A program made the translations under genes and the position numbers. From Escherichia phage vB-EcoP-XT18: 64,000 bases of DNA. This document shows positions 4,232 through 48,898 of this stretch, one piece after another. The notes under the pieces were generated by a model, which worked only from the letters and a program-made list of their open reading frames with translations, was not told the origin of the DNA and made no database searches. Location of the stretch: the sequence record OR757434.1. The stretch is one strand, 5' to 3'. Each line of letters opens with the position of its first letter. Position 1 is the first letter of the stretch.

Positions 4232-4558
4232 ATGTTAGATTTGAGTAAAGTGGCCCCGCCCACTGAAGAGATTACAAAATCCAAGGTGATGCAACAGTTT
4301 TATCATCGTGATATGCTTGGTCGCTTTATCAAGAATCGTGATGTTGTTGCTTGGTCTATTGGTAATCAAGGATATCTGTTGAAGGTTCTTCAGGTTACAG
4401 GTTCAACTGCTAAGCGAGTTAAGGTGTATGACCCTGAAATGGGGCGTTCTAAGTCAGTAGACCCGCAGAACTGCATCGTAATTACCCAGCAGGTGATAGC
4501 AAATCTAGAAAGAAATGTAGCAAACTCTACTGAGTTAGAAGGAGAAGACCCTAAGTGA
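4232..4558 (+). CDS. hypothetical protein
   Basis: ORF with GGAG-type RBS. Confidence 0.45.
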   Translation: MLDLSKVAPPTEEITKSKVMQQFYHRDMLGRFIKNRDVVAWSIGNQGYLLKVLQVTGSTAKRVKVYDPEMGRSKSVDPQNCIVITQQVIANLERNVANSTELEGEDPK

Positions 4559-5049
4559 TTCCAAAGGAATTGGAAGGGAAGATTGATGTAACAGAGGATG
4601 GTAGAGTATTTACTATAAAAAGTGGAAGGTTTTTAACCCTCCACACTAATGGTGCCTATTACAGAGTTACTATTTACTTTCCTGAAGGATTAAAGAATTT
4701 CTATGTCCACAGGCTGGTTGCTAGTAAGTACATACCGAACCCTGATAATCTTCCATGTGTCAACCATAAGGATGGCAATAAACTTAACAATCATAAAGAT
4801 AATCTTGAATGGTGTACCCACCGAGAAAACTCTCAACATGCATCATCATTAGGTCTGATGGTACAGAGGTTTGGAGAAGACAATCCGCAGTCTAAACTTA
4901 CTCTAGAAGATGTAGAGTACTGTAGGAGAGTTTATATCCCTCGAGATAAAGAGTTTGGAGGCTCTGCCCTTGCAAGACGTTTTGGTGTCTCTCAGCAAGT
5001 GATATCAAAAGTTCTACTTAATCAAACTTGGAGGGAATATAATGCATAA
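4555..5049 (+). CDS. HNH homing endonuclease with C-terminal HTH
   Basis: VNHKDGNKLNNHKDNLEWCTHRENSQH; paralog of 41312-41824. Confidence 0.8.
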   Translation: MIPKELEGKIDVTEDGRVFTIKSGRFLTLHTNGAYYRVTIYFPEGLKNFYVHRLVASKYIPNPDNLPCVNHKDGNKLNNHKDNLEWCTHRENSQHASSLGLMVQRFGEDNPQSKLTLEDVEYCRRVYIPRDKEFGGSALARRFGVSQQVISKVLLNQTWREYNA

Positions 5050-6725: not shown

Positions 6726-7217
6726 ATGAATGATATTGATCCATCAATAAAAGAAGCTCTTGATTATGACCCTTTGACTGGAGATTTCCGATGGGTTAAA
6801 ACTTATGGAAAAGGGCGCAAAGGGTCTATAGCTGGTTCTATAAATACCAACGGGTATTTGAGAATCGTTTATAAAGGTGTTAGGTATTATGCTCATCGAC
6901 TTGCTTACTGGTGGGACACTGGATTGCTTCCTGAAGAAGTGGACCATGTAGACCGCAACAGACTAAATAACAAAAGAGAGAACCTTAGAGGGACTACTAG
7001 GTCAGGGAATGGACTCAACAAAATAGCCCAAAGTAACAACTTATCAACCGGAGTGATTGGAGTAACTCTTCATAGAAGGAAAAGTGGCTCTATTGCTTAC
7101 CGGGCGGTATTCAAATCTAAGCACATAGGACTCTTCTCAACTATAGAAGAAGCCTCTAAAGCATATAATAAAGTCAAGGAGACTTATATAAATGACAATC
7201 AAAGCTTCACTAATTGA
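6726..7217 (+). CDS. HNH homing endonuclease
   Basis: VDHVDRNRLNNKRENLR HNH core. Confidence 0.75.
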   Translation: MNDIDPSIKEALDYDPLTGDFRWVKTYGKGRKGSIAGSINTNGYLRIVYKGVRYYAHRLAYWWDTGLLPEEVDHVDRNRLNNKRENLRGTTRSGNGLNKIAQSNNLSTGVIGVTLHRRKSGSIAYRAVFKSKHIGLFSTIEEASKAYNKVKETYINDNQSFTN

Positions 7218-14266: not shown

Positions 14267-14483
14267 AATGGAATACATTGATAAATACTCAAGTGAAGAT
14301 TCAAAAGACGCTGAAGTTTTGTTCGTACTGAAAACAGACTGTTTAGAACATGGACAGCTTATCAACTTTATTGAATTGGCAAAACTTAAAGAAGAAATTG
14401 ATCAACTATACAGTGATGAGCAATCCAGATTACTTTCCTTGTCCCTGCTAGGTGACTTAACCTGTGATGGTTGCATGATATGA
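14232..14483 (+). CDS. hypothetical protein
   Basis: ORF. Confidence 0.3.
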   Translation: MLLTTNKEMWCKMEYIDKYSSEDSKDAEVLFVLKTDCLEHGQLINFIELAKLKEEIDQLYSDEQSRLLSLSLLGDLTCDGCMI

Positions 14484-14953
14484 TAGAAGATCTTCTGGAT
14501 GAGTTCTTTGTTTGTGATTTATCATCTGGGAAAGTGTTCTGGAGAATTCACAACGGAACAAAATGCAGGCGGGGTGACGAGGCAGGAACTTCAAAAAAGG
14601 ATGGAAGAGTGCTTATTCGATTGAAAGGAAGAGCCATTTACAGATACCACATCATTTGGTATTTTGCTAATGGTGTTTTACCTAAAGATCAAATAGATCA
14701 CATTGATCGAAACCCTTCCAACGATTCCATAGGCAACCTTAGAGAAGTTAACAACGAGAATAATTCTTGGAACAAGGGTTTGAACTCTAACAACACATCA
14801 GGAGCTAAGGGCGTATACCTCAATTCAAGAGGGAAGTACATAGCCAACATACATATTAGAGGTAAAACTAAATACCTAGGAACTTTCTCAACCCTAGAGG
14901 AAGCCGTCTCTGTTAGAAACAGAGCGGAGGAAGATCATAAATTAACTACCTAA
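14471..14953 (+). CDS. HNH homing endonuclease
   Basis: IDHIDRNPSNDSIGNLREV HNH core. Confidence 0.75.
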   Translation: MHDMIEDLLDEFFVCDLSSGKVFWRIHNGTKCRRGDEAGTSKKDGRVLIRLKGRAIYRYHIIWYFANGVLPKDQIDHIDRNPSNDSIGNLREVNNENNSWNKGLNSNNTSGAKGVYLNSRGKYIANIHIRGKTKYLGTFSTLEEAVSVRNRAEEDHKLTT

Positions 14954-17234: not shown

Positions 17235-18720
<1,486 letters not shown>

Positions 18721-18730
<10 letters not shown>

Positions 18731-20140: not shown

Positions 20141-20153
20141 TAAGGATATTATA

Positions 20154-20345
20154 ATGGGTAAATTTGATTATCGTTCATATGATGAAAACTCCTCCAATCG
20201 TGAATCTCGTAAAGAGCAGCGTATTAAATACAGTCATGAATTAGGAAATCGCTATATTAAAGAAAAGCGTGAAAAAGTATCACATCGAGTAGATAAACGT
20301 GTATGGGAAGAAGATGATATGAGTATAGGTTATGGCGAAGGCTGA
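20154..20345 (+). CDS. hypothetical protein
   Basis: ORF. Confidence 0.35.
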   Translation: MGKFDYRSYDENSSNRESRKEQRIKYSHELGNRYIKEKREKVSHRVDKRVWEEDDMSIGYGEG

Positions 20346-20733
20346 GAAGACACGCTGTAGTGGAATGTGGACTGAAGCTCGTTACAACTCTTTCATCAAG
20401 TCAGGGATTCGTTCTCTGACTAGAAAGTGGAAGCCCATGTTCGATGCACTAGCAGACGCCAAGACAGAGCAGAAGGTTAATCCAAAGACAGGAAGACTGG
20501 CAATGCACTTTAAGTGTGCCATGTGTGGTTCTGACCACCCTGTAAAGGATATGGCTATTGACCACATAGAGCCTATAGTTCCTCTTGACCATGAAGCAAC
20601 TTGGGATGAAATCATCTCTCGTGCTCTGTGTGAGAAAGAAGGTTTTCAGGTTCTGTGTAAAGACCCTTGTCATAAGATTAAAACAAAAGAAGAGAATGAT
20701 GCAAGAAAACAATTCAAAAAAGGAAATGAGTGA
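20332..20733 (+). CDS. HNH-type endonuclease
   Basis: CAMCG...IDHIEPI...CKDPCHK. Confidence 0.55.
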   Translation: MAKAEKTRCSGMWTEARYNSFIKSGIRSLTRKWKPMFDALADAKTEQKVNPKTGRLAMHFKCAMCGSDHPVKDMAIDHIEPIVPLDHEATWDEIISRALCEKEGFQVLCKDPCHKIKTKEENDARKQFKKGNE

Positions 20734-20953: not shown

Positions 20954-21390
20954 GAACTGACATGATCACACAAGCAGATAAAAATAAACTCTTCGACTTA
21001 ATCCACGATCTATTAGAAGCTCAGAGCTTTATTGATAATGTCGAGACTTGGGAGATGGAAGCAGCTGGAAAAGCTTTTGATGAAAGCGAAGAGAAACTTA
21101 CTAATTTTATAAACACAATCTAGGAGGGTGTATGAATGAAGGAGTTGTTATTCTTGGCAGTAAATCAGATTGGTTCTACGGAGGCATCTCAGGATGCTTT
21201 GAAGATGAACATCCAGACTTCTGAAGAGAATTGGGATGTATGACGAATTTGATGGTTTTTGAAAAGATAAAACAGAGCAAAATTGATATGATGAAAAAGT
21301 TCAAAGCGGCTTATGATAAAGCTGTTAAAGAAGGAACTATCACTTACAAGAAAATCTAGAAATAAATAAAGCCCCTTCCAAGGAGGATTA

Positions 21391-21756
21391 ATGGGAACAT
21401 GGAGGTTTAGAAAAACAGAGCCATCTAATGTTCGTGGTCTTTGTGTTTTGTGCAACAAGAACCCTCAGAAATCAAAGGGTGGTGGAAAGTTTGCACCCTT
21501 GTGCTCTCCTTGTAATAAAAGAGAGTATGAGAATATGGATGCACACAGAGAGCGTACTAGAAGGTATAAATCACCATATGTAGACTTTAAGAAAGAAGTG
21601 TGCGAGATGTGCGGTTTCATCCCTAAACACACTTGCCAATTAGATGTAGATCACATAAATGGTAACCACAAAGATAACAGAGAAGAAAACCTTCAAACAC
21701 TTTGTGCGAACTGTCACAGACTGAAAACGTTTACCAATAAAGATTGGGGACGTTAA
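21391..21756 (+). CDS. HNH endonuclease
   Basis: CEMCG...DVDHINGNHKDNREENLQTLCANCH. Confidence 0.75.
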   Translation: MGTWRFRKTEPSNVRGLCVLCNKNPQKSKGGGKFAPLCSPCNKREYENMDAHRERTRRYKSPYVDFKKEVCEMCGFIPKHTCQLDVDHINGNHKDNREENLQTLCANCHRLKTFTNKDWGR

Positions 21757-21762
21757 ATAATA

Positions 21763-21800
21763 AAGCCCTCTTGGATTTCTCCTTGAGGGCTTTTCTTTTA
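21763..21800. terminator. bidirectional terminator at the convergent junction of the plus and minus modules
   Basis: 8-bp stem AAGCCCUC/GAGGGCUU flanked by an A-run and a T-run. Confidence 0.5.
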
Positions 21801-24800
21801 TCACTCCTTAGGTCGAACTCTTACACGGAGTCTCGATTGACGCTTACTGCGTTCAAGCTTCTCTGACAATGAGCCACGTTTAATCTTCGGCTTCCCTTCG
21901 TCATTAAACTTCTCCAAGAACTGCAAGTACTCAGTACGATTCGTTGTCTTGTAAGAAGGAATCTTAACATCAGGGTTCTCTTCAATCACACGTCTCATCT
22001 TCGCTACATCATCCCTGCCAAGCAACTTACTCTTAGCCTGTTCAGCTGTAGAACCAAAGATCTTCTCCAGTGCTCTGGATTTGTTACCACCTGCGGAAGA
22101 AGCACCAAGTTTAGCAATAGCAGAATAATCATCAGCACTAAACCAAGCTACCGGATTATCGCCATACTTCTTCTTGTTTTCAGCAGCAGTCTGCAATGCA
22201 CGTACAAAGCGACGGTTGTTACCAGCCTTATCTGCACCATGAACCCTGTCTAAAACTTCAGCCACACTAGCTAACTCATCCAAGCTCTTCCCACTCAAGA
22301 AAGCTTTCTCTACTTTATCAGCAAAGACTTCTTCCTGCTGCTTAATACTTTCCAAGATATCAGAATTTGCTTGAGATTTTTCATCGTCAGGCAGAGCAGA
22401 ACGAATCTTCTCCATCTCCATCTCTTCCTCTTGCAGTTTCTTAATATCAGAGTCAACCTTCTGAGCTTCCTCAATAGCCTTCCTAGTATCCGAATCCAAA
22501 TTATCAATCTTACCTTCAGTATCTCCAGTAACCTTAACAATCTCTTTCTCGATAGGAGTCATTGATTCGTACTTCTTAGCAAACTTCTCAACATCAGCCT
22601 CGATACGAGAACGAGCATTCTGATGTTCAGTTGGAGTCATAGGCTTCTCAAGAAGTGCATAACGGTTATCCATGTAGGAACCAGCAAACGCTTCAGCATC
22701 CTCTCTAGATATGCCCTTATCTTCCATAGTACGCACCAGACGGCGATGAATGTCATCACGTTGACGTTGTACTGCCATAAGGTCATTCTCACGCTCTTGG
22801 GCCGCTTTAAGCTCTTCACTGCGCTTAACTCTCTTGTCCACATCAAACTTACGGTTCATCTCTTCCGCTTGCTCATACATCTTGTTCCACTTGGCCTGAC
22901 GAGCATCTTCCTCTGCATCAGTTAAACGACGCTGACGATCAAGGTAATCTGACTCGGCGTTGTGGATACGTTCAATGTAACTACGGAACTTCTCTGGAGG
23001 AACTGGAGAGTTCTTGTCATGGTGAGCAGCCAACTGTTTCAATGTACGAGATTCCTGAGCCTCACGAACAGGTTTAGGTAAACCTTCCATCATCTTCTCA
23101 ATCTCACTCTTCTGAGCTGCAATAGCCTCTAGAGTTTTACGTTCATTCTCAACAGCAGCCTTAGCATCTGAACGAGCCTGAGCTTTGTTTTTCAGAGTGG
23201 CAAGACGTTCTTCACGAGCCTGTAAATGCTTAGCAGCAGCTTCATACTGAGAGTTCTTGTTAGCTTTGTTGAAGGCATTCACTTCTCTGTTATAGGTGTT
23301 AATAAACCCATCCCAAACATCCTTCATCTGACCAACTTCCAAAGCCTCTTCTCTACCAGCCTTCTCTGAAGATTTAAACTTCCCATCTACATAATCATTC
23401 ATCAGCTTACGCATAGCATCTTTCTGAGCAGGACGTAAAGGTTCTGAATCAATCAAAGTGTCAATCTCAGACTGAAGCTCTTTCTTCTGGTCAACCAGTT
23501 TAGGAGCATCTTTCTTATCAAAAGCTTTGTTCTCTTCTAGAGCTTGTTGATACAGTCTATCAAACTCATCCTCACGCTGCTTCTGATACAATCTTTCAGC
23601 ACGACGTTTCAGACTATCCAAGTTAGTAACGTTCCCACCTAAACCTTTCTCTTCAGCACGTAATGCCTTAGTAGCAATATCTTCTGGCAGACCACGTTCC
23701 TTAACCCATTCAGCAAAATTAGTTCGTACAGTGTTGTTCTTAGCAGTAGCAATACCTTGCTGAGAAGACAACTGGTTACGAGCCATTTCTTCATGACGTT
23801 CAGTGTTGATAGCATTATCTTCCTGACGAATACGACGCATCAATTCCTTAGGATCACCTTTATAAGCCAAGAAGTTTTCAGCAGTAGCTTTAGCCTTAGC
23901 AGCCTTAGAGTACAGAGAACGAGCAAAGCGTTCTGCACGATCTTTAGTAGCCTGACGAGCAGCACTAGACATAGCAGCTAAACGTTCTACACCACTTGCC
24001 GGTTTAACGTCCTGTACAGCTTCCTTAGGAGCTTTAGGAGCACGGGCAGGTAATGGCTCAGCTTTGACTGTTGGTTCCTCTACGGTTGGTTCTGGAGCCT
24101 GTGCGGCCTCTTCTTGAGCACGTTGCTGTTCCATTGCACGACGTTCCTCTAAAGGGTTACGAGCAGGGAGAGGTTCAGCCTGTGGAGCTTGTTCGACCGG
24201 AGCTTCTTGAGCCTGTGCTGCCTCTTCTTCAGCGCGACGCTGTTCAGCCTGACGGATAGCACGTCTTTGCGCAACTAAATCACGAGCTGTAAGAGGGGTT
24301 TCTTGAGGAGCAGAAGAAGAAAGATTTTCTTCCGTCACAGTACTAGAAGAAGGCTCCCGAACCGGTTCGGTTTCTACGTCATTTTGCGTCTTAAATTTAA
24401 TGTCACCAACAACTGGTTCTTCTTCCATTTTAGCACGAGCTTCATCAGCAGTAGACTTAGCACGAGCAACTTCCAAATCACCACGAGCCAGAGAGCGGAT
24501 AGCTTCACTGTTAGATTCTTGTTGCTTAACACGTTGAGAGCGAGCACGCTGAGAAGAGAAGCGATTCAGAGCATACTTAGCAGCACCGAGTGTGTTCATA
24601 ACCAGACTAGGAGAAGAAGCCTCACGGAATCCATCATCAGTCAGGGACGTCCAACCACGGTCTTGGTTGCTCATGAACTTAGCTGTATTATTCAGAGTGT
24701 AAGCATCTTGAATAGGATTAAAACCTTCAGGCATACCTTTCAGTTTCTTCAACCCACCAATAGCTTTCTTCATCTCTGGAGAAACATTATCAGCCATCTT

Positions 24801-30806: not shown

Positions 30807-31838
30807 TTATAGTCCAGCAAAAACCTTAGCTGCATTCATTACAGGAACTGATAGATTAACTACAGTGTCAGCTCCTAGGTCGTAATTTTGATCCCACTGA
30901 AATAGGTATCTTCCATAGCCAGTTCCTATGCTAGAGCCGCTCATTGTGTGAGATCTCATTTGCTGATATCTCCATCCACTACCTTGGCCTTTTATTGCAC
31001 CTATTCCAGAAGTAAGAGGTATCATAGGATACGACATTCCAGTGTTACCACCACCTGAACCTATAAAAGTATCTACAGTGAAAGGTGTTCTGTTAGTAGA
31101 GAAGACGCACTGAGTGGTGCCCGGAGAGTAGATATTCAAACCCCCGTTATGCTCAGGAACGCCAGCTCCGTTGCAGAATACGGCAATCCTCACAAAGACG
31201 GACCCTCCTTCATTAGTGTTTCCGTTGACATAAGGCCTATTCTGATAGACTCGAATAATCCTGTCATCAGATGTGTAAGATAAACCAACCCCTCCATCAG
31301 ACCAATTAGCAAATACAACAGCATTGGTCATATTGAACCCACCAATATTTGGTATCTGAAGGGAGTTGTTTATGGTCCCCTGCCAAGCCCAAATACATTG
31401 ACCAACAACCCCACTATCCGATATTGAGAAGTAGTCTGCTGTATTGGAAAAGGTAATTCCATAATTCCTATCCGCTCTAGGCCATATTTGGTATACGTTG
31501 AACCCACAGTCGAACAGAGGGTTACTACCTGGGTTCTGATTCAGAGTGACTCTAAAAGAGGAGTTGTTTTCTACGTAGATATCATTCACACAATAAACAT
31601 CAGGAACTAGGTTAGGAGGGACTTCCCATTGCCAGCATAAAGAACCAGTAGGAACAATAACTATCTGACCACTGCCATCCCACCCACTAATAGGGAAAGA
31701 CCTCCCTGCCCCGTTAAAGTTAAAACTTCCTCTTATACTATTCTTGAACTGAGGGAAAGTACTTCCACTGTCTATGAAAAGAGGGGCTGGTGTAGCTGGT
31801 CCCGGCCCTACCGGTTGTGTCCAAATTCCATATGCCAT
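30807..31838 (-). CDS. structural protein
   Basis: ORF in the late operon. Confidence 0.4.
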   Translation of the reverse strand: MAYGIWTQPVGPGPATPAPLFIDSGSTFPQFKNSIRGSFNFNGAGRSFPISGWDGSGQIVIVPTGSLCWQWEVPPNLVPDVYCVNDIYVENNSSFRVTLNQNPGSNPLFDCGFNVYQIWPRADRNYGITFSNTADYFSISDSGVVGQCIWAWQGTINNSLQIPNIGGFNMTNAVVFANWSDGGVGLSYTSDDRIIRVYQNRPYVNGNTNEGGSVFVRIAVFCNGAGVPEHNGGLNIYSPGTTQCVFSTNRTPFTVDTFIGSGGGNTGMSYPMIPLTSGIGAIKGQGSGWRYQQMRSHTMSGSSIGTGYGRYLFQWDQNYDLGADTVVNLSVPVMNAAKVFAGL

Positions 31839-31839
31839 A

Positions 31840-32808
31840 TCACCAACTCCCTATCCTAATTCTCAGAGCACCACTTCCATCATAGAAGTCTATCCTGTTT
31901 CCATTCATCCATAATTGTGCCCCACCTGTGCCACCCATAACGAAATCACCTCCAACAGTAAACCTCCAGTTAGTACCTGACATTGTACCAGCAGTTATTT
32001 TATCAGCAGACAAACTTTGAATCTGAGCATTGGTGATTGATACGTTGGTAATCTGCCCCCACTCAATAGTAGCAGTTGCAATTTGAGCAGAGGTGATAAC
32101 TACGTTAGTGATATCAGCAAACTCCATAACAGCTCTACCGTTCTCAACTCTGAATGGGGTACTTCCTGACGTGCCATCAGATACCACAAACTTATCAGCT
32201 GTTACTTGGAACTGGCTTATAGTGCCATTGTTTGTTAGCTTTACCCCTGCTGTCTTGCCGTTTACTGTGGAATTAACACCCCAAGTAGCCTCATACTCGG
32301 TGAGCTTCATATACTGAGATGCACTTCCTGTGCCATTAGTGAGATCAGATTGAATAAGAGCTATCTCTTGTCCTTGGTCGTTAACAATCCCTTCGACAGT
32401 TTGGATAGATGCTGTATTTCCTTCTATAGACGTTTTGATACCGGACACAGTTGAATCCAGCTTGACAGGAGGACTAACAGAATTATCCCAAATGTCATCA
32501 GTGGATAGATTACCCATTTGTGTTATGATATCTGCAATGGCAGTCTCAATCTCTGTAGTAACACGGTTCTCTAGTTCATCGAATTGTAAATTCATAGCAT
32601 GAAGAGCTTTAATACGAACATCAATCTCCTCATGGATTTCATCTATAGCTTGGAACATTTGATTAGTTGCAGTACTGATATTCTGGAGTTCATCATATAT
32701 TGCAACGTTGTTAGTTTCTACACTCTCAGAGGTGTTTAGAAAACCCACACTATAAGGTTGTGTTGTGTTGTTTCTTCCGGTATTCTTACGAAAGCCACCA
32801 GCACCCAT
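31840..32808 (-). CDS. tail-fibre-like structural protein
   Basis: ORF in the late operon; C-terminal Thr/Gly-rich repeats. Confidence 0.4.
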   Translation of the reverse strand: MGAGGFRKNTGRNNTTQPYSVGFLNTSESVETNNVAIYDELQNISTATNQMFQAIDEIHEEIDVRIKALHAMNLQFDELENRVTTEIETAIADIITQMGNLSTDDIWDNSVSPPVKLDSTVSGIKTSIEGNTASIQTVEGIVNDQGQEIALIQSDLTNGTGSASQYMKLTEYEATWGVNSTVNGKTAGVKLTNNGTISQFQVTADKFVVSDGTSGSTPFRVENGRAVMEFADITNVVITSAQIATATIEWGQITNVSITNAQIQSLSADKITAGTMSGTNWRFTVGGDFVMGGTGGAQLWMNGNRIDFYDGSGALRIRIGSW

Positions 32809-37496: not shown

Positions 37497-39569
37497 TCAT
37501 ATCAATCCATAGATGATGTTGTGAAGAACACACCCCCCAACTGCGCCACCTATGTTGAAATTAATTTCAGCCTTACTGGACCCTGGAGGAACTGAATCAA
37601 TAACAGCATAGAAACTGAACGAGTTGTTACTAGGTATGTAATATCCAATAGACTCAGAAACTGCATTACCTGCTGAATCTAGAAACCTAATAGATGCTAG
37701 TGTAGTGGTTGTATTCTTAGCCCAAAAACCAAACTGAAAGTATCTTCCGGGATGACACTCACTCACTGATTGGGTGAAGTTTGCCGAGCTAGTCGTATCT
37801 GGGACACCAAAAGAGAATGATGTGTTAAACATAGGAGACGAACTCGGAACATCATTGGGTTGAGAAACTGACACTACCCCTGATCCTGTTTGACTAAATG
37901 TCCAGTTAGATGTATTTAAGAATTGCCCGGAACCATTACTAAGACTATTAATGTAAGGGCTTACAATAGATCCAAGATCCCACCTACTTAAGACAAAACC
38001 AGCTCTAGGGTAACATCCGTTAGACACAACTCTCTTACTATCACCGCCGATGAGTTGGCGAGTAGGGAAACCAGTGGCTAGAGTATTGTTGCCATACAGA
38101 GGTAGAGAGCAGTTTGTCAGAGAAACAAAACCATCCCCATTACTTACTATAGGGACAGAACTAAAACCTACAGGGACCAAAATTGTCGAATCTTTTATGC
38201 TCAATCTCGAACTACCATTAACAGAAAAAGAAACAAAAGACTGATCCGGTTGATACTCAATGTTCCCATTAGAAAAAACAACTGTGGCGTTGTCTGTCAT
38301 TATAATGGTTGGGTCAAAATATCCAGACTTTTTCCCAGCAGGAAGTGAACACGTATCAAAGATGAATTGTCCATTCTCAAAAGTAAAAGGTCCTCCGTTA
38401 TCCACGCACCAGCAGTGATTGAACTTTATAACTTCTCCAGAGTTCGCTCTTGATTTAAAAACAACCGTGTCCGTAAAGCTTCTACTTATTGCACATTTGT
38501 CAAAAAGGATCCTATATGAATTATCAAGGAATTCAAGACCAGCTGTTGAGATAAAACCACAATTTTCTATCCGAACTTCCGACACCTCCCCACTATCAGT
38601 CCCTCCAATTACAACCTTTCTGGCACCTAGACCAACAAAGGACACTCCTGATATCTTAGCTGTTGAAGAAATCGAATCTCTAAGCCCATAATCTGTGTTT
38701 GAATTTATAATCTTCAAGAAATATTGACCTGTTGCTCCAGCCCCTTCCTGAAGCTTACAATTATTATAGCCTATCAAGGCTCCTTTAGAAACGTCAATAG
38801 CTATCTCAGATAATACGGATCCAGAAGTTGGAACTATACAATCGTAACCAGAGGAGTTCACTTTGTTGATATAAACAGCAATATCCCCGCTGCCAGTGTA
38901 GCCTGCATCAAACACAGAAGCTTCTCCAGAGAATAGCAACCTCTTCCATTTTACAGAAACTCCACTGAAAACCACCACCCCATCAGCTGTTTCTGAATTG
39001 TCTATTGCTACAAACACACCCCCTCCCATATTAGCCCCTTCGACATAAGATCTTACAAAGACTTTGTCACCTACAGAAGCTCCCTCTAAGGTCTGAAGTT
39101 GTTCAATAGAGGGGAGATCTCCAATAAGATTAAACCCTGTAGGCAGGCCTAGTTCTTGAGAGACCACATTAGATACCTGACCTAATGCCACTGCTTCGTC
39201 ACTCTCAACGGCGTTTGGTATACGTATAGGTTGAGAAAAAGTTACCTTATTTGTCATCGAAGTAATATCTGAGTTAGCCCCACTCTTAGCCGCAACCAGT
39301 GCGAGCCTTGCCGTGTCCGGAGAAGAGGCTCCTGTACCACCTTTCGAAATAGGAACAATATTTTCTACAGAAACATCACCTAATCCTAAATTAGATCTAG
39401 CAATAGTAGTATTAATTGCTCCTGTACCACCTTTCGAAATAGGAACAATATTTTCTACAGAAACATCACCTAATCCTAAATTAGATCTAGCAATAGTAGT
39501 ATTAATTGCTCCTGTACCACCTTTCGAAATAGGAACAGGCTCCTGTACCACCTTTCGAAATAGGAACAA
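37497..39569 (-). CDS. tail fibre, C-terminal portion (gene appears split by a frameshift in the repeat array)
   Basis: begins with identical 30-aa tail-fibre repeats (SKGGTGAINTTIARSNLGLG); overlaps the upstream ORF by 68 nt. Confidence 0.6.
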   Translation of the reverse strand: MFLFRKVVQEPVPISKGGTGAINTTIARSNLGLGDVSVENIVPISKGGTGAINTTIARSNLGLGDVSVENIVPISKGGTGASSPDTARLALVAAKSGANSDITSMTNKVTFSQPIRIPNAVESDEAVALGQVSNVVSQELGLPTGFNLIGDLPSIEQLQTLEGASVGDKVFVRSYVEGANMGGGVFVAIDNSETADGVVVFSGVSVKWKRLLFSGEASVFDAGYTGSGDIAVYINKVNSSGYDCIVPTSGSVLSEIAIDVSKGALIGYNNCKLQEGAGATGQYFLKIINSNTDYGLRDSISSTAKISGVSFVGLGARKVVIGGTDSGEVSEVRIENCGFISTAGLEFLDNSYRILFDKCAISRSFTDTVVFKSRANSGEVIKFNHCWCVDNGGPFTFENGQFIFDTCSLPAGKKSGYFDPTIIMTDNATVVFSNGNIEYQPDQSFVSFSVNGSSRLSIKDSTILVPVGFSSVPIVSNGDGFVSLTNCSLPLYGNNTLATGFPTRQLIGGDSKRVVSNGCYPRAGFVLSRWDLGSIVSPYINSLSNGSGQFLNTSNWTFSQTGSGVVSVSQPNDVPSSSPMFNTSFSFGVPDTTSSANFTQSVSECHPGRYFQFGFWAKNTTTTLASIRFLDSAGNAVSESIGYYIPSNNSFSFYAVIDSVPPGSSKAEINFNIGGAVGGCVLHNIIYGLI

Positions 39570-39701
39570 TATTTTCTACAGAAACATCACCTAATCCTAA
39601 ATTAGATCTAGCAATAGTAGTATTAATTGCTCCTGTACCACCTTTCGAAATAGGAACAATATTTTCTACAGAAACATCACCTAATCCTAAATTAGATCTA
39701 G
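39328..39701 (-). repeat. perfect 90-bp tandem repeat array (about 4 full units plus a 31-nt partial unit) inside the tail-fibre gene
   Basis: units at 39328, 39418, 39539 and 39629; truncated 30-nt unit plus one G at 39508-39538. Confidence 0.85.
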
Positions 39702-40563
39702 ACCCCTCTGCCGTGGAAGAACCCGTACCGCCTTGGAGCAGAGAGAGAGGTGTGGTTAGACCTGAGAGGGAGGTAATATCTGAGTTAGAGCCACTCTTAG
39801 CTGCACCGGTAATCTGCTCAACAGTATAGTCTCCGGCCTGCGGTGATACAACACCTGTCCGTGAGTTAAAACTGGAAACCACCTGTAAAGAAACTTCTCC
39901 TGTTTGAGCAACACCTCCATTAAGAGATACTGACCGAACAGAGGGGATTAGATTAGCAATGTCAACCATTGAGGTTCTATACAGCCCACCAGAGTCCTTA
40001 TCTACGAAAAAACCATAATCATCCGACACAGGAATACCAACAGGAGTTTCCCCAATGTCTGAAATTGTACCATCTGTTCCGTCACGACCCGGCTTCCCTT
40101 CTGGAATACCAAAAGAGAATACACCAGTTGTATTGTCATAGGAACCCGTTGCCAAACTACCTGGGGGTAGTAGCGTCGTCTGTACCGTCATATTAGAAAT
40201 AATATCAAGCTGTTCTAGGACTTGCTGCGTTGCTTCTCTTGAAAGATCTGTAGCTGCATTTGTATTGTCAATAGCCTGTCCCGTAGACTGAATAAGACCT
40301 AGAAGAGTCTGATTCTGTGCTTCAAAGTCTTCTTTAAGTTGCTTAATGTCAGACTCTAGCAGGAACCCTTGAGCGTATAGACGTTCTACCTCAGCAAGAA
40401 TCTCATCTACTGAAGAATATTTAGTCTGGGATAACAGCGCCCAATATTTAGCATCAGCTGCATACTCAGCCGCTGATTTATAAGCACCAATTGATCCTTC
40501 TGTAGCACCAAATTGGCCTACATTATTCACCGCTGTAGGTGCTGAATTGTTGTAACTGATCAT
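39502..40563 (-). CDS. tail fibre, N-terminal portion (ends 20 codons after the partial repeat)
   Basis: same 30-aa repeats at the C-terminus; reading frame leaves the repeat frame at 39538. Confidence 0.6.
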   Translation of the reverse strand: MISYNNSAPTAVNNVGQFGATEGSIGAYKSAAEYAADAKYWALLSQTKYSSVDEILAEVERLYAQGFLLESDIKQLKEDFEAQNQTLLGLIQSTGQAIDNTNAATDLSREATQQVLEQLDIISNMTVQTTLLPPGSLATGSYDNTTGVFSFGIPEGKPGRDGTDGTISDIGETPVGIPVSDDYGFFVDKDSGGLYRTSMVDIANLIPSVRSVSLNGGVAQTGEVSLQVVSSFNSRTGVVSPQAGDYTVEQITGAAKSGSNSDITSLSGLTTPLSLLQGGTGSSTAEGSRSNLGLGDVSVENIVPISKGGTGAINTTIARSNLGLGDVSVENIVPISKGGTGACSYFERWYRSN

Positions 40564-40572
40564 ATTATCTCC

Positions 40573-41349
40573 TTATACACGAGAAGTACGAATACCATAA
40601 ATATCAGGCAAGCTGCTCTGAAGCCGAGTCATGTTATTCGGAATTGCGATAGGTGAACCTGAGTACTCTTGTTTCTTATTCTGCTCTACCATTTCATCAA
40701 GGATAGCTTTTCCTAATGCTGACCATTTCTGAACTCCGTTGTCATCTTGAACAAACAAGCAAGCATGACGTAGAGTAAAGTACAGAAGAAGTTCTGGTGC
40801 GATAGTAAGAATAGCACTAGTGTCTGTGTCTTCATGGAATTCCGGTGGGTCTGCATAATAACTAAGAATTACTGAGTTTTCTGCTGGAATCAAAGGACTT
40901 CCATCATCAGGGTAATACGGAGTGTCTGCTTCGATGCTAGGATAGAAAATGAAACGACTACCGAAACGAGCAAAGTTAACAGGTTGATTGTTCCAATGAG
41001 ATGGGTTAATTGTTCCATGCTGTCTACGATAGCTAATCTCTTCAGGAGATGTTACTTGGAAGATTGTACCATCTTTGGCTCTCATCATCCATTGAGCTTC
41101 TAAGTAATCAGGAGGAATGTAAGCTACTCCATCTTTAATATCTAAATACACTTCTTTTTCCAGAGGAGGGATACGTAAATTACGATAAATCTCTTTCTCT
41201 GCAAAGTTAATAAAGTTTGGAATTTGATTAACAAATTCGTCATCGTCCCTATCTGCCCAGAGGGCCACGGCCTTCTTTAGCCACCCATAGGTATTGATGG
41301 GGTATTGAACGTCAGGCAACATAGGATACCTCCTTCCAGTTTGTGCCAT
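40573..41349 (-). CDS. structural protein, possible head-tail adaptor
   Basis: ORF between the capsid region and the tail fibre. Confidence 0.35.
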   Translation of the reverse strand: MAQTGRRYPMLPDVQYPINTYGWLKKAVALWADRDDDEFVNQIPNFINFAEKEIYRNLRIPPLEKEVYLDIKDGVAYIPPDYLEAQWMMRAKDGTIFQVTSPEEISYRRQHGTINPSHWNNQPVNFARFGSRFIFYPSIEADTPYYPDDGSPLIPAENSVILSYYADPPEFHEDTDTSAILTIAPELLLYFTLRHACLFVQDDNGVQKWSALGKAILDEMVEQNKKQEYSGSPIAIPNNMTRLQSSLPDIYGIRTSRV

Positions 41350-41824
41350 TGATTATCAGGCTTATTGTACTTGAAGAGACTCCAAACTTCCTAGCTAAAG
41401 CTCTAGCTCCGAACTGTCTGTCCCTCGGTTTATAGTTCTCTAAACAGAAAAGAACTTGTTCTTTAGTAAGTTTGGAATTAGGGTTATCCTCAAGATTTCT
41501 TGGTGTTGAGAGTTTTGTTTCATAAGCATGTACACAGTTTTCTTGTTGAGTACACCACTCTAGATTCTCAATCCTGTTATCATCTTTTATTCCATTCTTA
41601 TGGTTGACATAATCCTTCCCTTCTACTTTAGGAAGAAAGAGTTCAGCTATGACCCTGTGCTCTAGGTACGATTTCTTCTTGAAGGTTAGTACACGATATC
41701 CCTTATTATTAATACATCCAGCACGTTGCCCTTTCTGTTTATTGAATATGTTACTCATAGACCAGAAAAGATGCCCTGTATTTGGGTTATATGTAAAAGC
41801 TCCTCTGAAATCTGGCATTGCCAT
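41312..41824 (-). CDS. HNH homing endonuclease with C-terminal HTH, free-standing inside the late operon
   Basis: VNHKNGIKDDNRIENLEWCTQQEN; own promoter motif upstream. Confidence 0.75.
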   Translation of the reverse strand: MAMPDFRGAFTYNPNTGHLFWSMSNIFNKQKGQRAGCINNKGYRVLTFKKKSYLEHRVIAELFLPKVEGKDYVNHKNGIKDDNRIENLEWCTQQENCVHAYETKLSTPRNLEDNPNSKLTKEQVLFCLENYKPRDRQFGARALARKFGVSSSTISLIINGTNWKEVSYVA

Positions 41825-41857
41825 AGGTTGTCCTCCTTGTTATATGTAGACAAAGAA

Positions 41858-41866
41858 TATACATTA
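41858..41866 (-). promoter_or_regulatory. TAATGTATA, putative phage-sigma-dependent promoter
   Basis: minus strand reads GTGTAATGTATATTC about 35 nt upstream of the HNH start. Confidence 0.45.
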
Positions 41867-41889
41867 CACACTAGCTTGTATAGGTCTTA

Positions 41890-41920
41890 AAACGAAAAAA
41901 CCCCGCCCGAAGGCAGGGTC
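41890..41920 (-). terminator. rho-independent terminator (minus strand)
   Basis: CCCUGCC-UUCG-GGCGGGG then UUUUUUCGUUUU on the minus strand. Confidence 0.65.
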
Positions 41921-41925
41921 TAATT

Positions 41926-42474
41926 TTAAGCAGCAGGTGTTACACCTGTGAATTCACAAGTGGCTGTTACAAGAGGTTTAGTCTCGTGTGTAGCTGTAAC
42001 AGAGACTGCACCCGTAGCAGTATCAGCAAGAGTCAAAAGACCAGCTGCACTAACAGTGCCCGCTTCCGGAGGAGTTACCTCAAAAGTATAGTCACTTCCG
42101 GTAGAGTTTGTTGCTGTAAACATAGTAGAGAATGCGGTTGTTGATCCACCCACCTTCCCTGAAATCGGACCTCGGCTAACAAGGGTAGGTTCAGGGTCAG
42201 CAATAGCTGAGATCGTAGATGTACCGGATTTACCACCTTTAGTAGCTTTCACTGTAATCGGGGTTTCTTGCGACGCACTCGGTGCAGTATACAGTCCAGA
42301 AACAGAAATAGCCCCACCACCCTCAACGGACCAAACAAATCCAGTTGTTGATGTGGAGCTATCACTCATTTGTGCTGTAGCTGTAAACTGCTGAGTAGCC
42401 CCCGTCGGAAGGCTTGCAACCGACGAAGGACTAACAGTTATGGTATCTACTGTTACGCCGCCACTGCCTTTCCC
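41926..42474 (-). CDS. Ig-like (Big_2) C-terminal extension of the capsid protein, reached by -1 frameshift
   Basis: -1 frame is open from the slippery site to the stop at 41926; the Big_2-like sequence VTVDTITVSPSSVASLPTGATQQFTATA begins upstream of the first Met. Confidence 0.6.
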   Translation of the reverse strand, partial: GKGSGGVTVDTITVSPSSVASLPTGATQQFTATAQMSDSSTSTTGFVWSVEGGGAISVSGLYTAPSASQETPITVKATKGGKSGTSTISAIADPEPTLVSRGPISGKVGGSTTAFSTMFTATNSTGSDYTFEVTPPEAGTVSAAGLLTLADTATGAVSVTATHETKPLVTATCEFTGVTPAA

Positions 42475-43514
42475 GCAGCAGTGAACAGAACACCGGAAGC
42501 ATACGGGTTGCGGTGACGCAGACCAACTTCCATCTCAATCATCCATTTTTCGTAAGAACCATCTTTAGCCAGTTCAGTACGTTTCGGAGCACGCAGAACC
42601 ATCTGAGTCCAGTCAGCGCTACGGAAGAAGTAAACTGCATCGGTAGGCATCCAACGGTTAACGATGATTTTGTAGCTCTGGCCCAGCGGGTCAGTGATGC
42701 TGTTAACTTCGTAAATGAACTGCTTGGTGTTTTCAAAGATACGCTTACGTGAACCCTGAGTATTTTCTTGCAGACCAGCGAAGATCTTAGCATGAGCCGG
42801 GTTAATCATGATGATATCTGCTTCAGAACCAGCGGTGTACAGTTGCAGAGTCATATCAAAGATATCTGCTTCATCAAAGCCGATGTTAGTAGCCGGGTTA
42901 GAAGCGTTCTGTGCAACTTTAACAGTGATTGCACCAGTATCCGGGTCAGCAGGACCATTCTTGGTCTTGTCAACAACGCCGCCAGCCAGACCACCGTGAG
43001 CACACAGGAACTGGAATGCACCAGTCTTACGAGCTGCATGGGTGTCGTTCTTGCCAATCTGATCTGGGTCAGCGGCAGAGTTAGTCAGGTATTGGTCAGC
43101 CAGAACGTCGGTACGAGCCTGACCAGACAGAAGGATTTTCTCGAGGTCACGCTTGATCTCTTTACCTTTCTTCTCCAGCTGGTACATCAGTTCGCGACCA
43201 CGACCGTAGTTAGCGGTGGTGTTAGCAGTGTCAGAAACACGAACAACCTTACGCAGAATCTGAGTAACGTTAGACTTGATAACAGTCGGTTTCATTTCGC
43301 CGTCTTCAGCACGAGAGCCTTCGACGTGTGCGTTATTACCATCAACGCTTGCCAGTGCATCGGTCTGCCAGCTAAAGATAGTCTGGTTGATAGACTCTTT
43401 ACCGGTCATGGATACGAACGGGGTATCCTGAGGGGACAGAACAGAAATCCAGTTAGCAAAAGAAAGTTTTTTACCATTCTGGTCATACGATACAAATAAA
43501 GTTGGATTAGCCAT
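42453..43514 (-). CDS. major capsid protein
   Basis: 353-aa ORF directly after the scaffold gene; gene order and size. Confidence 0.7.
   Translation of the reverse strand: MANPTLFVSYDQNGKKLSFANWISVLSPQDTPFVSMTGKESINQTIFSWQTDALASVDGNNAHVEGSRAEDGEMKPTVIKSNVTQILRKVVRVSDTANTTANYGRGRELMYQLEKKGKEIKRDLEKILLSGQARTDVLADQYLTNSAADPDQIGKNDTHAARKTGAFQFLCAHGGLAGGVVDKTKNGPADPDTGAITVKVAQNASNPATNIGFDEADIFDMTLQLYTAGSEADIIMINPAHAKIFAGLQENTQGSRKRIFENTKQFIYEVNSITDPLGQSYKIIVNRWMPTDAVYFFRSADWTQMVLRAPKRTELAKDGSYEKWMIEMEVGLRHRNPYASGVLFTAAGKAVAA
42468..42474 (-). promoter_or_regulatory. -1 ribosomal frameshift slippery heptamer G_GGA_AAG
   Basis: GGGAAAG lies 5 codons before the capsid stop; same heptamer as the lambda G/GT frameshift site. 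Confidence 0.55.
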
Positions 43515-47356: not shown

Positions 47357-48898
47357 TTAGTAGCTCTGATTCCATCTGCTTACGTTTGCCTCATACAAAG
47401 AAGCGCTTCCGTAGCTAACATCATGCTTAGAGCGACCACGATGTGTAACAGAGCACGCTGAATAGCGCATTGCATCCATTAAGTCATCATGTTCTTTAAT
47501 AATCTTACCAACCTTACGGTGATATCTAGCTTTCTCTTCGAATAGCTTAGCGTTAGCGGCTGTGTTAAAGACTTTAAAGCGTCCACTCATCATTCTTTCT
47601 CGGATATCTGTGATTCCCGGTTCTACAAAGAAGTTCTTTTTACCATCCATTCCAATTTTGTTGTAGAAGGTCTCACTCTGTACGTTAACTCCTGCATTCT
47701 TATAGAATTGAGCAACAGATGAGCCACTACCTTTCTCAGTATTGTCCGCATCATGCGGTAGGATGACAGGAATCCACTGACCACGACCATTAATAGCTGG
47801 AGCATGATACACTGGAGTAAAGCCACCTTCTTTATATGAGTCGTAAACATAGATAGTATCCGTGTTTGCATCGTAAGCTGTCCAAACAGCAGCAGTTGGG
47901 TGATCAATACCAATATCAATTGCACAGACACGTTTCCACGTATCAGGAATTTCGAATGGTTCACATTTAATTGTGTCATCCGATACATCATATATCAAAC
48001 CACTTCCTAACAATGGCATACCTTTTGAACGCATCTCTAACTGCCACGCTGGAATACCTTCAGTCATATCTTTTATATCTTGGTCAGTGATGTGTCCACC
48101 TAGGTCTGCATGAGCATCCCACCAAGAAGCATTCTGGAAATACAGAGAACCTGTGTTCTCATCTCCTTCACCTTTCATAAATTTATCTACCAGTTCAGTT
48201 AAACCGTTCTCTGGTGTAGCTGTAATTGTAACTAGACCTTTAGTTGTGAGTGTACGTGTGACGCACTGTGCGAATATAGCCATAGACTCGTATGGATCTT
48301 CTTCGTCTAACCAAATGTAGTCAACTGTTGCACCCATCAATGTGTGTTCACCCTGTTGGGTTGAACGGAATTCTAATGTACTTAAACCGTCAAACTCTCC
48401 TCTCTCATTTTGATGTTTGATTTGTACGATTTGAAGTTTGTTACCATCTCGTTCTATCGTATCAATGACGATAGCATCACGAGGAATGACACCTGTCCCT
48501 AATAAATTTGTATCCTTTCCGATAGGTGTACCAAACAATTCCTTTTGCAATACTTTCCTTGTGGAATCCCCTGTAATACCAACTGCCCATGCTAAGATAG
48601 GTCTTTTAAATTTATATCCTGTCCACCAAGTTGGGTAGCGACCTGTGACATGACAAGCAAACTCGTATGCCTCGCTATAAGATTTACCAACACGGTTCGC
48701 TGCACACAAGAATCTAAAGCGATGCTTCAATCCTGCTGCATAAAATTTCTTTTGGAAGTCATACGCCTTGAAAGACAAAATCTTATTATACTTCCTCCAT
48801 TGGTCACGCTCTTTCAACATATTCAATAGTGCTTTCTTTTCGTCTACACTAAGGTTGTTACCAGTTAGAGCTTCATAAATTTGTTTATCTAATGACAT
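47357..48898 (-). CDS. terminase large subunit
   Basis: Walker A-like AANRVGKS; size and position upstream of the portal. Confidence 0.75.
   Translation of the reverse strand: MSLDKQIYEALTGNNLSVDEKKALLNMLKERDQWRKYNKILSFKAYDFQKKFYAAGLKHRFRFLCAANRVGKSYSEAYEFACHVTGRYPTWWTGYKFKRPILAWAVGITGDSTRKVLQKELFGTPIGKDTNLLGTGVIPRDAIVIDTIERDGNKLQIVQIKHQNERGEFDGLSTLEFRSTQQGEHTLMGATVDYIWLDEEDPYESMAIFAQCVTRTLTTKGLVTITATPENGLTELVDKFMKGEGDENTGSLYFQNASWWDAHADLGGHITDQDIKDMTEGIPAWQLEMRSKGMPLLGSGLIYDVSDDTIKCEPFEIPDTWKRVCAIDIGIDHPTAAVWTAYDANTDTIYVYDSYKEGGFTPVYHAPAINGRGQWIPVILPHDADNTEKGSGSSVAQFYKNAGVNVQSETFYNKIGMDGKKNFFVEPGITDIRERMMSGRFKVFNTAANAKLFEEKARYHRKVGKIIKEHDDLMDAMRYSACSVTHRGRSKHDVSYGSASLYEANVSRWNQSY

Follow-up and report, generated by a model that had tools for sequence, protein, structure and literature searches.

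The window, by which we mean the whole 64,000-nucleotide stretch of DNA analyzed, comes from a phiEco32-like Escherichia coli podophage (Kuravirus), and phage XT32 is approximately 99.9% identical to it. On its minus strand, an HNH endonuclease open reading frame (ORF) has an Ig-domain gene on one side and the head-to-tail adaptor gene on the other, with the large terminase gene (47357-48898) about 5.5 kb away; the features of this locus and the other HNH genes of the window are listed in Table 1. Immediately 3' of the upstream Ig-domain gene, a stem-loop with a T tail forms a terminator (41921-41898, minus strand), and the motif TAATGTATA and an AAGGAGG ribosome-binding site are found 33 nt and 7 nt 5' of the HNH ATG, respectively. 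The HNH ORF begins at the ATG of the adaptor gene and uses the ribosome-binding site, the first five codons, and the resident late promoter motif of that gene. The final 27 nt of the inserted cassette carry a second ribosome-binding site, GGAAGGAGG, together with a start (ATG TTG CCT GAC) for the adaptor, so that the adaptor is still encoded and is one residue shorter (MLPD versus MAMPD). The stop codon of the HNH ORF (TGA, 41312-41314) is located inside the re-created CCTGAC. These observations correct the existing annotation: the XT32 record labels the HNH ORF a hypothetical protein, and the true start of the adaptor is at 41322, while the upstream ATG at 41349 is not a start.

Table 1. Features of the adaptor locus and the other HNH genes of the window
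Feature	Coordinates	Strand	Basis or remarks
Head-to-tail adaptor gene, insertion target	40573..41322	-	phiEco32 gp13 homolog; Pfam SU10_adaptor; PHROG 2941; PF24175 on homologs
Replacement adaptor start ATG TTG CCT GAC (MLPD)	41311..41322	-	XT32 and IME267 annotations agree on start
Inserted cassette, 499 bp	41311..41809	-	Missing in empty-site relatives; breakpoints exact from XT73 and phiEco32 alignments
HNH endonuclease ORF	41312..41824	-	170 aa; ATG start; I-HmuI-like
Replacement adaptor ribosome-binding site GGAAGGAGG	41329..41337	-	Within HNH codons W163-K164-E165; read from sequence
ATG GCA ATG CCA GAT (MAMPD), ancestral adaptor codons 1-5, now HNH codons 1-5	41810..41824	-	Empty-site alignment
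Ribosome-binding site AAGGAGG, originally of the adaptor, now serving the HNH ORF	41832..41838	-	Read from sequence
TAATGTATA middle/late promoter motif, resident promoter of the adaptor/tail operon	41858..41866	-	Motif search; unchanged at empty sites
Intrinsic terminator, resident, outside the cassette	41898..41921	-	Terminator scan; same sequence at XT73 and phiEco32 empty sites
Paralogous HNH gene, 486-bp clean insertion at gp68/gp67 (Dps) gene overlap	4555..5049	+	Within the collection, in XT32 and XT73 only
HNH_3 endonuclease gene, thioredoxin and ThyX genes on either side	6726..7217	+	Polymorphic; 8 records cover at least 80% of query; phiEco32 and XT73 without it
HNH_3 endonuclease gene related to 6726 (E about 3e-19)	14471..14953	+	Polymorphic; 6 records cover at least 80% of query
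Conserved HNH protein, phiEco32 gp30 homolog	20332..20733	+	PHROG 3106, E = 4e-40; sometimes annotated as small terminase (PMC9965538)
PF01844 HNH gene inserted in bidirectional terminator, end of middle operon	21391..21756	+	Present in IMEP8; absent from XT73, phiEco32, CHD5UKE1, VTCCBPA_211

The first-pass annotation had recognized an HNH gene here, and this gene is real and intact. Its product matched Pfam HNH_3 (PF13392) with 49.1 bits (cut-off, 24.8; E = 4.4e-13) and PHROG 59, "HNH endonuclease" (E = 2e-38). In an alignment of 98 homologous sequences, H75, N83, N87, and N96 were invariant and N74 was at least 90% conserved, with H75 aligned to the histidine of DHKDG in I-HmuI. A sequence search of the PDB gave a single significant match, I-HmuI (1U3E; E = 2e-4, across the HNH core), and Foldseek with the AlphaFold2 model of the protein (pLDDT, 90.3) returned the same entry as its top and sole significant PDB hit, with an E value of 8.6e-7, a probability of 1.00, and 178 aligned columns. 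The structural alignment was full length and the TM-score just 0.45, as expected because the protein is elongated and has multiple domains. According to the model, the protein is built from an N-terminal beta domain, the HNH core, a helical linker, and a C-terminal helical domain resembling a helix-turn-helix. Helices were predicted at residues 121-130, 140-147, and 151-158, and residues ~135-165 gave sub-threshold Pfam helix-turn-helix matches alone (HTH_3, LacI, and HTH_38; E = 0.01 to 0.2).

The resemblance to I-HmuI, the HNH endonuclease of the DNA-polymerase intron of Bacillus phage SPO1, extends to size (170 versus 174 aa), the order of modules, and the positions of His75 and Asn96. However, the two proteins share only ~21% sequence identity, and I-HmuI resides within a group I intron, whereas the gene described here is free-standing and intron-less. 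I-HmuI nicks one strand, and at position 74 it reportedly has a metal-binding Asp; our protein has Asn there instead, which, like the low TM-score, counts against an I-HmuI-type enzyme, although this N74 is nearly invariant in its subfamily.

The cassette follows codon 5 of the adaptor gene; aligning the window with XT73 and phiEco32 resolved the empty and occupied junctions to the nucleotide. A comparison of synteny with HNH-free relatives, as the first-pass annotation had proposed, did define the insertion site (41311-41809): in the phage collection, 11 of the 85 records with the site carried the cassette, and an exact, uninterrupted 56-nt empty target was present in at least 49 of the 85, XT73 included. 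The occurrence of the cassette among close relatives was sporadic, but its nucleotide position never varied, and the window and XT32 on the one hand and XT73 on the other form a near-isogenic pair with the cassette present and absent, respectively. XT32 and XT73 share the host strain E. coli EC-YG1908-580. The flanks of the XT73 empty site were identical to the window over 1,394 nt on the adaptor side and 2,683 nt upstream. The 30-kb late regions of the two were 99.5 to 99.8% identical, and the cassette was the only large indel, variation of the tail-fiber repeat array (near 39.3-39.7 kb) aside. The boundaries and architecture of the junction were identical in all allele classes (97 to 100%, 85%, and 70% nucleotide identity). 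Additionally, orthologs of the HNH protein were located immediately 5' of an SU10_adaptor gene in all four metagenomic contexts examined, while scans of IMG/VR for the empty and occupied junction patterns matched phiEco32 itself alone and added nothing to the census. The gene had been described earlier as a mobile insertion between capsid and tail genes; it is a discrete insertion of the mobile type in the region between head and tail genes, for which empty sites are common, but it lies inside the adaptor coding sequence and is not intergenic.

Adaptor homologs with as little as 34% identity start with MA[MLFV]P, and the empty state is ancestral because this MAMPD-type N terminus is native to adaptors over that whole range. 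For the same reason, we do not accept that the empty sites generally arose by deletion, the MA-x-P N terminus being native to adaptors far outside this phage group. Some adaptor homologs start with MMP or MLP (P0158 and P0169); an upstream HNH gene was sought next to these and none was found, so such an N terminus alone is not diagnostic of the insertion.

The first-pass annotation also had credited the HNH gene with its own TAATGTATA motif and a preceding terminator. Both are present at the locus, but both are resident, since XT73 and phiEco32 have them unchanged at their empty sites; they belong to the late transcription unit of the adaptor gene and therefore provide no evidence of mobility. 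The motif occurred five times in the window versus 0.75 expected, and none of 100 shuffles reached five copies. It is the motif by which the phiEco32-type phage sigma factor gp36 recognizes middle/late promoters, with its promoter identity coming from two papers that give the motif as tAATGTATAtA (PMC4281155) and AATGTA (PMC12276001). Similarly, XT73 and phiEco32 have the same AAGGAGG at their empty sites, there ahead of the adaptor ATG, and the ATG and the five opening codons are also unchanged in both. [quoted passage not shown] RNA folding of the two translation-initiation regions, which are also the two junctions, was no better than that of shuffled sequence (z, +0.8), and so we saw no sign of structure-based translational control.

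With a probability of about 0.78, we interpret 41311-41809 as a free-standing, intron-less homing endonuclease gene of the I-HmuI HNH type that is inserted site-specifically behind codon 5 of the adaptor gene; cleavage, homing, and expression are what we infer by analogy. The enzyme would be made late in infection and, in a mixed infection, would nick or cut HNH-less relatives at the uninterrupted site, in which ATGGCAATGCCAGAT is joined directly to GTTCAATACCCC. Recombinational repair off the HNH-bearing genome would then copy the cassette in. The carrier genome itself would be immune since the insertion splits the site; polymorphism in the flanks cannot account for immunity, as the carrier does not differ from the empty XT73 within at least 1.4 kb to each side.

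A less probable explanation, which we consider unlikely, is that the HNH protein has been domesticated and is kept for a benefit to the phage, such as competitor exclusion, host DNA degradation, or a role in packaging, with mainly vertical inheritance, repeated loss, and no active spread by homing. Every allele is intact (168 to 177 aa), and with dN/dS values of 0.04 to 0.12 the gene is under strong purifying selection, as this explanation would have it; a low dN/dS is, however, also the outcome when selection acts on a homing enzyme. A long stay at a single site would fit as well. The divergence of the cassette roughly parallels that of the adaptor gene in 1-6af (85% versus 84%) and Bas86 (70% versus 76%), and because it does so in several lineages, much of the cassette history could be vertical descent plus losses. 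PAS59 speaks against purely vertical descent: it has a cassette 99.6% identical to that of IME267 with an adaptor gene only 77.3% identical, while its adaptor gene is 96.7% identical to that of Bas86 and the cassettes of these two are 69.3% identical. Since the region upstream in PAS59 is also IME267-like, this discordance could reflect a single ordinary mosaic crossover at the conserved 5' end of the adaptor gene, and no co-conversion tract was detectable in the available genomes. The imperfect 9-bp direct repeats (ATGCCNGAY) that flank the insert could mediate its precise loss, but a microhomology deletion at the shared GA would give GAC, and this route was rejected since XT73 has GAT like the other empty sites. 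Most relatives lack the cassette altogether, the near-isogenic and viable XT73 among them, which also argues against domestication.

 Packaging-associated HNH proteins of the HK97 gp74 type (Kala et al. 2014, cited in PMC9965538) resemble the protein described here in being HNH-motif proteins from the late or structural region of a tailed phage. However, they form a different family, whose members are kept throughout related phages and lie with the terminase genes, whereas the gene at 41312-41824 is sporadic and belongs to the HNH_3/I-HmuI branch. The conserved HNH gene of the window is that at 20332-20733, which is the better candidate for a packaging-type role.

It is highly improbable that the HNH gene belongs to an intein or a group I intron in the adaptor gene, with the adaptor restored by RNA or protein splicing, and we rejected this possibility. 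The closest solved relative, I-HmuI, is intron encoded, one GenBank annotation pipeline puts the tag "Phage intron" on such genes, and the insert is indeed within adaptor coding sequence. On the other hand, Rfam gave no intron family match anywhere in the window, and the ORF takes up the whole 499-bp insert, with no space for a ribozyme core. An intein is contradicted by the length of the insert, which is not a multiple of 3, and by the HNH frame, which differs from that of the adaptor. Both forms of splicing are opposed by the consensus ribosome-binding site, ATG, and re-created M-x-P-D codons that every allele has ahead of the adaptor body, and by the junction folding described above. An assembly or annotation artifact, or a chance open frame, is next to impossible: the XT32 record is labeled a partial genome and the tail-fiber gene of the window has an odd repeat structure with an apparent frameshift, but the cassette occupies the same position in ten phages that were sequenced independently in China, the USA, Chile, Switzerland, and Pakistan. 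Moreover, metagenomes yielded 12 ortholog clusters of the protein, and both the strong family matches and the confident structure model speak for a real gene.

A homing endonuclease gene of this kind has several known counterparts. SegF and MobE of T4-like phages are reportedly free-standing homing endonucleases that spread by "intronless homing". The likeness lies in an endonuclease ORF that is lodged between or within essential genes, is found in some close relatives and precisely missing from others, relies on resident phage promoters for its expression, and presumably spreads through cleavage of the empty allele and recombinational repair in co-infection. Seg and Mob enzymes are usually intergenic, often cut at a distance, and obtain immunity via polymorphisms in the neighboring gene. 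In contrast, the identity of the carrier and empty flanks here means that any immunity must come from the split site, and the HNH ORF has the first five codons of its target gene joined to it in frame. A closer parallel in position is mobE in nrdA of Aeromonas phage Aeh1, which is said to be an HNH homing gene within coding sequence and without an intron. In both cases the host gene still works, and the part 3' of the insert has its own translation start. However, the Aeh1 host protein is made as two sizeable pieces that come together again, whereas the upstream "fragment" of the adaptor is only five codons long and has become part of the endonuclease; the cassette re-creates the codons, and the adaptor stays one polypeptide.

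The count of six HNH genes in the window given by the first-pass annotation was borne out: those at 6726, 14471, 20332, and 21391 all matched HNH PHROGs, and phmmer, with the six proteins as queries and every six-frame ORF of the window as target, found no seventh relative. The proposed paralogy with 4555-5049 also holds, with 44% identity over 130 aa (E = 3e-35). NCBIfam had no family for five of the six proteins and gave sub-threshold matches only for that at 21391. Like the gene at 41312-41824, four of the other five vary in presence among relatives, so that five of the six HNH ORFs show presence/absence polymorphism. The exception is 20332, which is not sporadic because ~98 records hold a homolog at no less than 60% protein identity; Pfam gave no HNH domain for it, and its HNH assignment comes from PHROG 3106 alone.

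Two of the genes, 4555 and 6726, are positioned between the exonuclease subunit (879-1433) and the polymerase (11231-13075), as had been reported, and homing-driven remodeling of the polymerase had been proposed from this. We rejected that part. All members of this phage group have the split polymerase, and in phiEco32, where the division is the same (gp74 exonuclease and gp53 polymerase), none of the 20 intervening genes is an HNH gene; the HNH genes of the window therefore did not cause it.

At the adaptor start, 14 empty-site records (NJ01, 172-1, PE006, O18-011, ES17, SDYTW1, myPSH1131, and others) contained a recoded patch that is almost purely synonymous. It comprises 19 changes in nt 5-86 of the adaptor gene, spanning the insertion point, with a divergence of ~21% over the first 90 nt, 0 changes in the next 60 nt, and ~5% elsewhere. 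A search of the collection found the patch solely in these 14 records, all without the cassette at the adaptor site, and found no donor lineage. Tentatively, cassette and target could be engaged in an arms race at the adaptor start, in which the element takes over the promoter, ribosome-binding site, and first codons and the recoded patch is perhaps a cleavage-resistant allele; we regard this as a minority possibility. In such a contest, the conserved C-terminal W-K/R-E codons, which are common to the 4555 paralog, may serve as a portable ribosome-binding site.

Overall, no new kind of system is revealed. The element would be an ordinary free-standing homing endonuclease gene of a type already well known, with cleavage and homing presumed, and the modest new detail is only its tidy wiring into the adaptor gene. 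In Kuravirus phages that are therapeutic candidates and otherwise almost the same, HNH cassettes make up some of the main large differences, and these differences bear on strain typing and on forecasting the outcome of co-infection in phage cocktails. The candidate recognition site is cleanly defined, and XT32 and XT73 constitute a natural near-isogenic pair, with the same host strain, for intronless homing outside the T4 system.

Around the cassette, a 499-bp insert on the minus strand (41311-41809), a 3.1-kb stretch of the window is 99.9% identical to vB-EcoP-XT32; its identity to other phiEco32-like podophages (Kuravirus, Gordonclarkvirinae), more than 60 of them, is 84 to 96%. The minus-strand gene order is scaffold, major head protein, Ig-domain protein, HNH ORF, "virion structural protein," and tail fibre. 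Homologs of the "virion structural protein" carry Pfam PF24175 (SU10_adaptor); therefore, this product is the head-to-tail adaptor, phiEco32 gp13. The first-pass annotation had placed a mobile HNH insertion between the capsid and tail genes. The insertion was borne out, and its exact position is after codon 5 of the adaptor gene.

The cassette junctions were aligned with the empty sites of XT73 and phiEco32 and the occupied site of IME267, and the alignment was later widened to nine phages. The empty site reads terminator, TAATGTATA, AAGGAGG, 7 nt, and then the first adaptor codons, ATG GCA ATG CCA GAT GTT CAA TAC CCC (MAMPDVQYP...). The window shares this arrangement through ATG GCA ATG CCA GAT and then continues with TTC AGA GG... 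into the HNH ORF, while GTT CAA TAC CCC picks up again after 499 bp. Thus, five elements are older than the insertion and are part of the adaptor's late transcription unit: the terminator and the promoter motif, the ribosome-binding site, the ATG, and the initial five codons. The cassette had been credited with its own TAATGTATA motif and preceding terminator, an attribution that fails because both are found at the empty sites of XT73 and phiEco32. The motif occurs five times in the window (0.75 expected) and is the published promoter element of the phiEco32 sigma factor gp36, tAATGTATAtA located 6 to 8 nt upstream of start points, with AATGTA centred at -11.5 (PMC4281155, PMC12276001); a gp36 homolog is encoded in the window inside a segment 93% identical to phiEco32.

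At the other end, the cassette closes with 27 nt, GGAAGGAGG TATCCT ATG TTG CCT GAC, that hold a new ribosome-binding site and a new start re-creating M-L-P-D for the adaptor. The new ribosome-binding site falls inside HNH codons W163-K164-E165, and the HNH stop codon, TGA, is contained in CCTGAC. XT32 and IME267 are annotated with the adaptor starting at 41322, which is the correct start; the ATG farther upstream, at 41349, is not. On both sides the insert is bordered by an imperfect direct repeat of the adaptor initiation region (AAGGAGG...ATG...CCNGAY). In public data, homologs of the adaptor at identities as low as 34% start with MA[MLFV]P (MAMPDV, MSMPDV, MAMPNV, MALPSL, etc.). MAMPD is therefore native to the adaptor, the site without an insert is the ancestral form, and the HNH ORF captured five adaptor codons.

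Features of the cassette locus and the other HNH ORFs of the window
Feature	Coordinates	Strand	Remarks
Major head protein	42453-43514	-	
Ig-domain protein	41926-42369	-	
Stem-loop with T tail	41921-41898	-	
Promoter motif TAATGTATA	41858-41866	-	Motif search
HNH ORF	41312-41824	-	170 aa
"Virion structural protein" (adaptor gene)	40573-41322	-	
HNH ORF 4555	4555-5049		Clean 486-bp insertion; overlap of gp68 and gp67 (Dps) genes
HNH ORF 6726	6726-7217		Thioredoxin/ThyX junction; in 8 records
HNH ORF 14471	14471-14953		In 6 records
HNH ORF 20332	20332-20733		phiEco32 gp30 homolog
HNH ORF 21391	21391-21756		Inserted in terminator ending middle operon; regenerates a terminator

The cassette was found in 11 phage records (10 phages), with copies 97 to 100% identical in XT32, TH06, TH38, IME267, MLP3, and PAS59, 85% identical in 1-6af, 1-6bf, and FH3, and about 70% identical in Bas86. 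Empty sites exist in relatives: a 56-nt probe spanning the uninterrupted site, with which occupied genomes show up as split matches, matched 85 records, at least 49 of them exactly. XT73, isolated on the host strain of XT32, matches the window without a difference over 1394 nt from the insertion point toward the adaptor gene and over 2683 nt in the opposite direction. Over the 30-kb late region the two are 99.5 to 99.8% identical, and the cassette is the only large indel besides variation in the tail-fibre repeat array near 39.3-39.7 kb. These comparisons demonstrate both the architecture of the insertion and its polymorphism. Metagenomes yielded 12 ortholog clusters (70 to 98% identity); in all four contexts examined the gene lay directly 5' of a SU10_adaptor gene whose ribosome-binding site was formed by W-K-E or W-K-G codons, and one of the four was a lineage with different neighbouring genes.

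PAS59 and IME267 have cassettes that are 99.6% identical and adaptor genes that are just 77.3% identical, whereas the adaptor genes of PAS59 and Bas86 are 96.7% identical and their cassettes just 69.3%; the identity switch lies within about 8 nt of the cassette 3' end. This discordance is consistent with cassette movement. A single ordinary crossover could also account for PAS59, where the region upstream is likewise IME267-like. In 1-6af and Bas86, cassette divergence is about equal to adaptor gene divergence, a pattern that fits long vertical residence.

The 170-aa ORF matched Pfam HNH_3 (49.1 bits; cut-off, 24.8) and PHROG 59 (E 2e-38), and I-HmuI was the sole solved structure matched by sequence (1U3E, E 2e-4). 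The AlphaFold2 model (pLDDT 90.3) has N-terminal strands, an HNH core, and three C-terminal helices, and its only significant Foldseek match in the PDB was again I-HmuI (E 8.6e-7, 178 columns, TM 0.45). H75, N83, N87, W90, and N96 were invariant in a 98-sequence alignment, while every sequence match of the C terminus to a helix-turn-helix fell below threshold. The ORF is intact in all cassette alleles, with dN/dS of 0.04 to 0.12, demonstrating selection on it. An intron or splicing reading was rejected, as no intron family matched across the whole window, the ORF fills the insert, and the HNH and adaptor frames differ; RNA folding at both cassette junctions was no better than that of shuffled sequence.

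All of the features described in the first-pass annotation (ORF, motif, terminator, and five other HNH ORFs) are present, so that its observation was confirmed and its interpretation was right in part. The 4555 ORF is, as proposed, a paralog of the 41312 HNH (44% identity over 130 aa, E 3e-35). The other four ORFs all match HNH PHROGs, and Pfam found no HNH domain in the 20332 product. When every six-frame ORF of the window was searched with the six proteins by phmmer, no seventh relative emerged; 41312 pairs with 4555 and 6726 with 14471, and the other two are singletons. Only XT32 and XT73 carry the 4555 HNH, with an empty junction in about 100 records; it takes over the last codons and stop of gp68 (AAT GCA TAA), and its W-R-E codons supply the ribosome-binding site of the Dps gene. 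IMEP8 has the 21391 HNH, which XT73, phiEco32, CHD5UKE1, and VTCCBPA_211 lack. Homologs of 20332 occur in about 98 records at ≥60% protein identity and in every relative inspected, and it is a conserved gene rather than a sporadic element. The 4555 and 6726 HNHs do lie in the 9.8-kb gap between the exonuclease subunit (879-1433) and polymerase (11231-13075) genes, but the suggested HNH-driven remodelling found no support, since phiEco32 has the polymerase split in the same way (gp74 and gp53, separated by 20 genes, none of them an HNH gene) and PMC9965538 describes the separation as shared by all of the group and by related genera. Both HNHs are later arrivals than the split.

An extra HNH gene of phiEco32, gp31 (31450-31902 of its record), adjoins the conserved gp30 HNH and is absent from the window (20218-20337), and ES17 has a different HNH at the thioredoxin/ThyX junction; thus, the HNH gene at these shared junctions differs from one relative to another. 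The first ORF of the window (1-885) is the C-terminal part of a primase/helicase, which is one 1791-nt gene in phiEco32. In the XT73 record (74079-75827 and 1-828) it is annotated as two CDS with an "HNH homing endonuclease" (75108-75608) between them, a seventh HNH site that splits a replication gene just upstream of the window.

Fourteen records without the cassette at this site, including NJ01, 172-1, PE006, O18-011, ES17, SDYTW1, myPSH1131, myPSH2311, and a record labelled Mycolicibacterium phage J1, differ from phiEco32 by 19 substitutions in nt 5-86 of the adaptor gene. The changes are almost purely synonymous, nearly all at codon third positions, and the patch spans the HNH insertion point. 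Divergence is about 21% in the patch, 0 in the next 60 nt, and ~5% in the rest of the gene, and the promoter region upstream is essentially unchanged. It may represent an allele that resists cleavage, or else the footprint of a recombination event; as mosaic patches are common in these genomes, with another one in mid-gene in ES17, we count it as no more than a lead.

Other variation was seen in the window. The Ig-domain gene 5' of the cassette is 63 to 70% identical to the copy in most relatives, its product has 147 aa in the window, against 170 in phiEco32 and 426 in Bas86, and this decoration gene is thus highly variable. The tail-fibre gene contains an array of 90-bp (30-aa) tandem repeats (39322-39701), with copy numbers that vary among the window, XT32, and XT73. 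The array of the window includes an odd 31-nt partial unit that splits the gene into overlapping ORFs (37497-39569 and 39502-40563), whereas it is a single CDS in XT32 and XT73; either a real frameshift or an error of assembly may underlie the break. Relative to XT73, a replacement unrelated to HNH genes (18329-19321; 991 bp versus 278 bp) spans a gp35-like GTP-binding-domain gene and a dNMP-kinase gene. For 19700-22300, no record in the phage collection was ≥99% identical (best, IMEP8 at 96.7%), while XT32 is 99.9 to 100% identical to the window in the other stretches compared. Hence, either the window and XT32 are related as mosaics, or the stretch is missing from the partial XT32 record. 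A tRNA gene lies in the early region (61854-61925; Rfam RF00005, 57 bits).

The element is best read as an ordinary free-standing HNH homing endonuclease gene, the name it already bears in some relatives (IME267, MLP3, and Bas86), and we infer its cleavage and homing by analogy. The resident promoter would drive late production of the HNH protein, which in a mixed infection would nick or cut the uninterrupted adaptor start, and repair would then copy the cassette into the cut genome. Carrier and empty genomes do not differ over at least 1.4 kb to either side of the cassette, so self-immunity would have to come from the split site and not from flanking polymorphism, and the predicted recognition site therefore spans the ATGGCAATGCCAGAT/GTTCAATACCCC junction. 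None of the papers found for the phiEco32-like group describes the cassette. Its wiring into the target gene adds a neat detail of modest weight.
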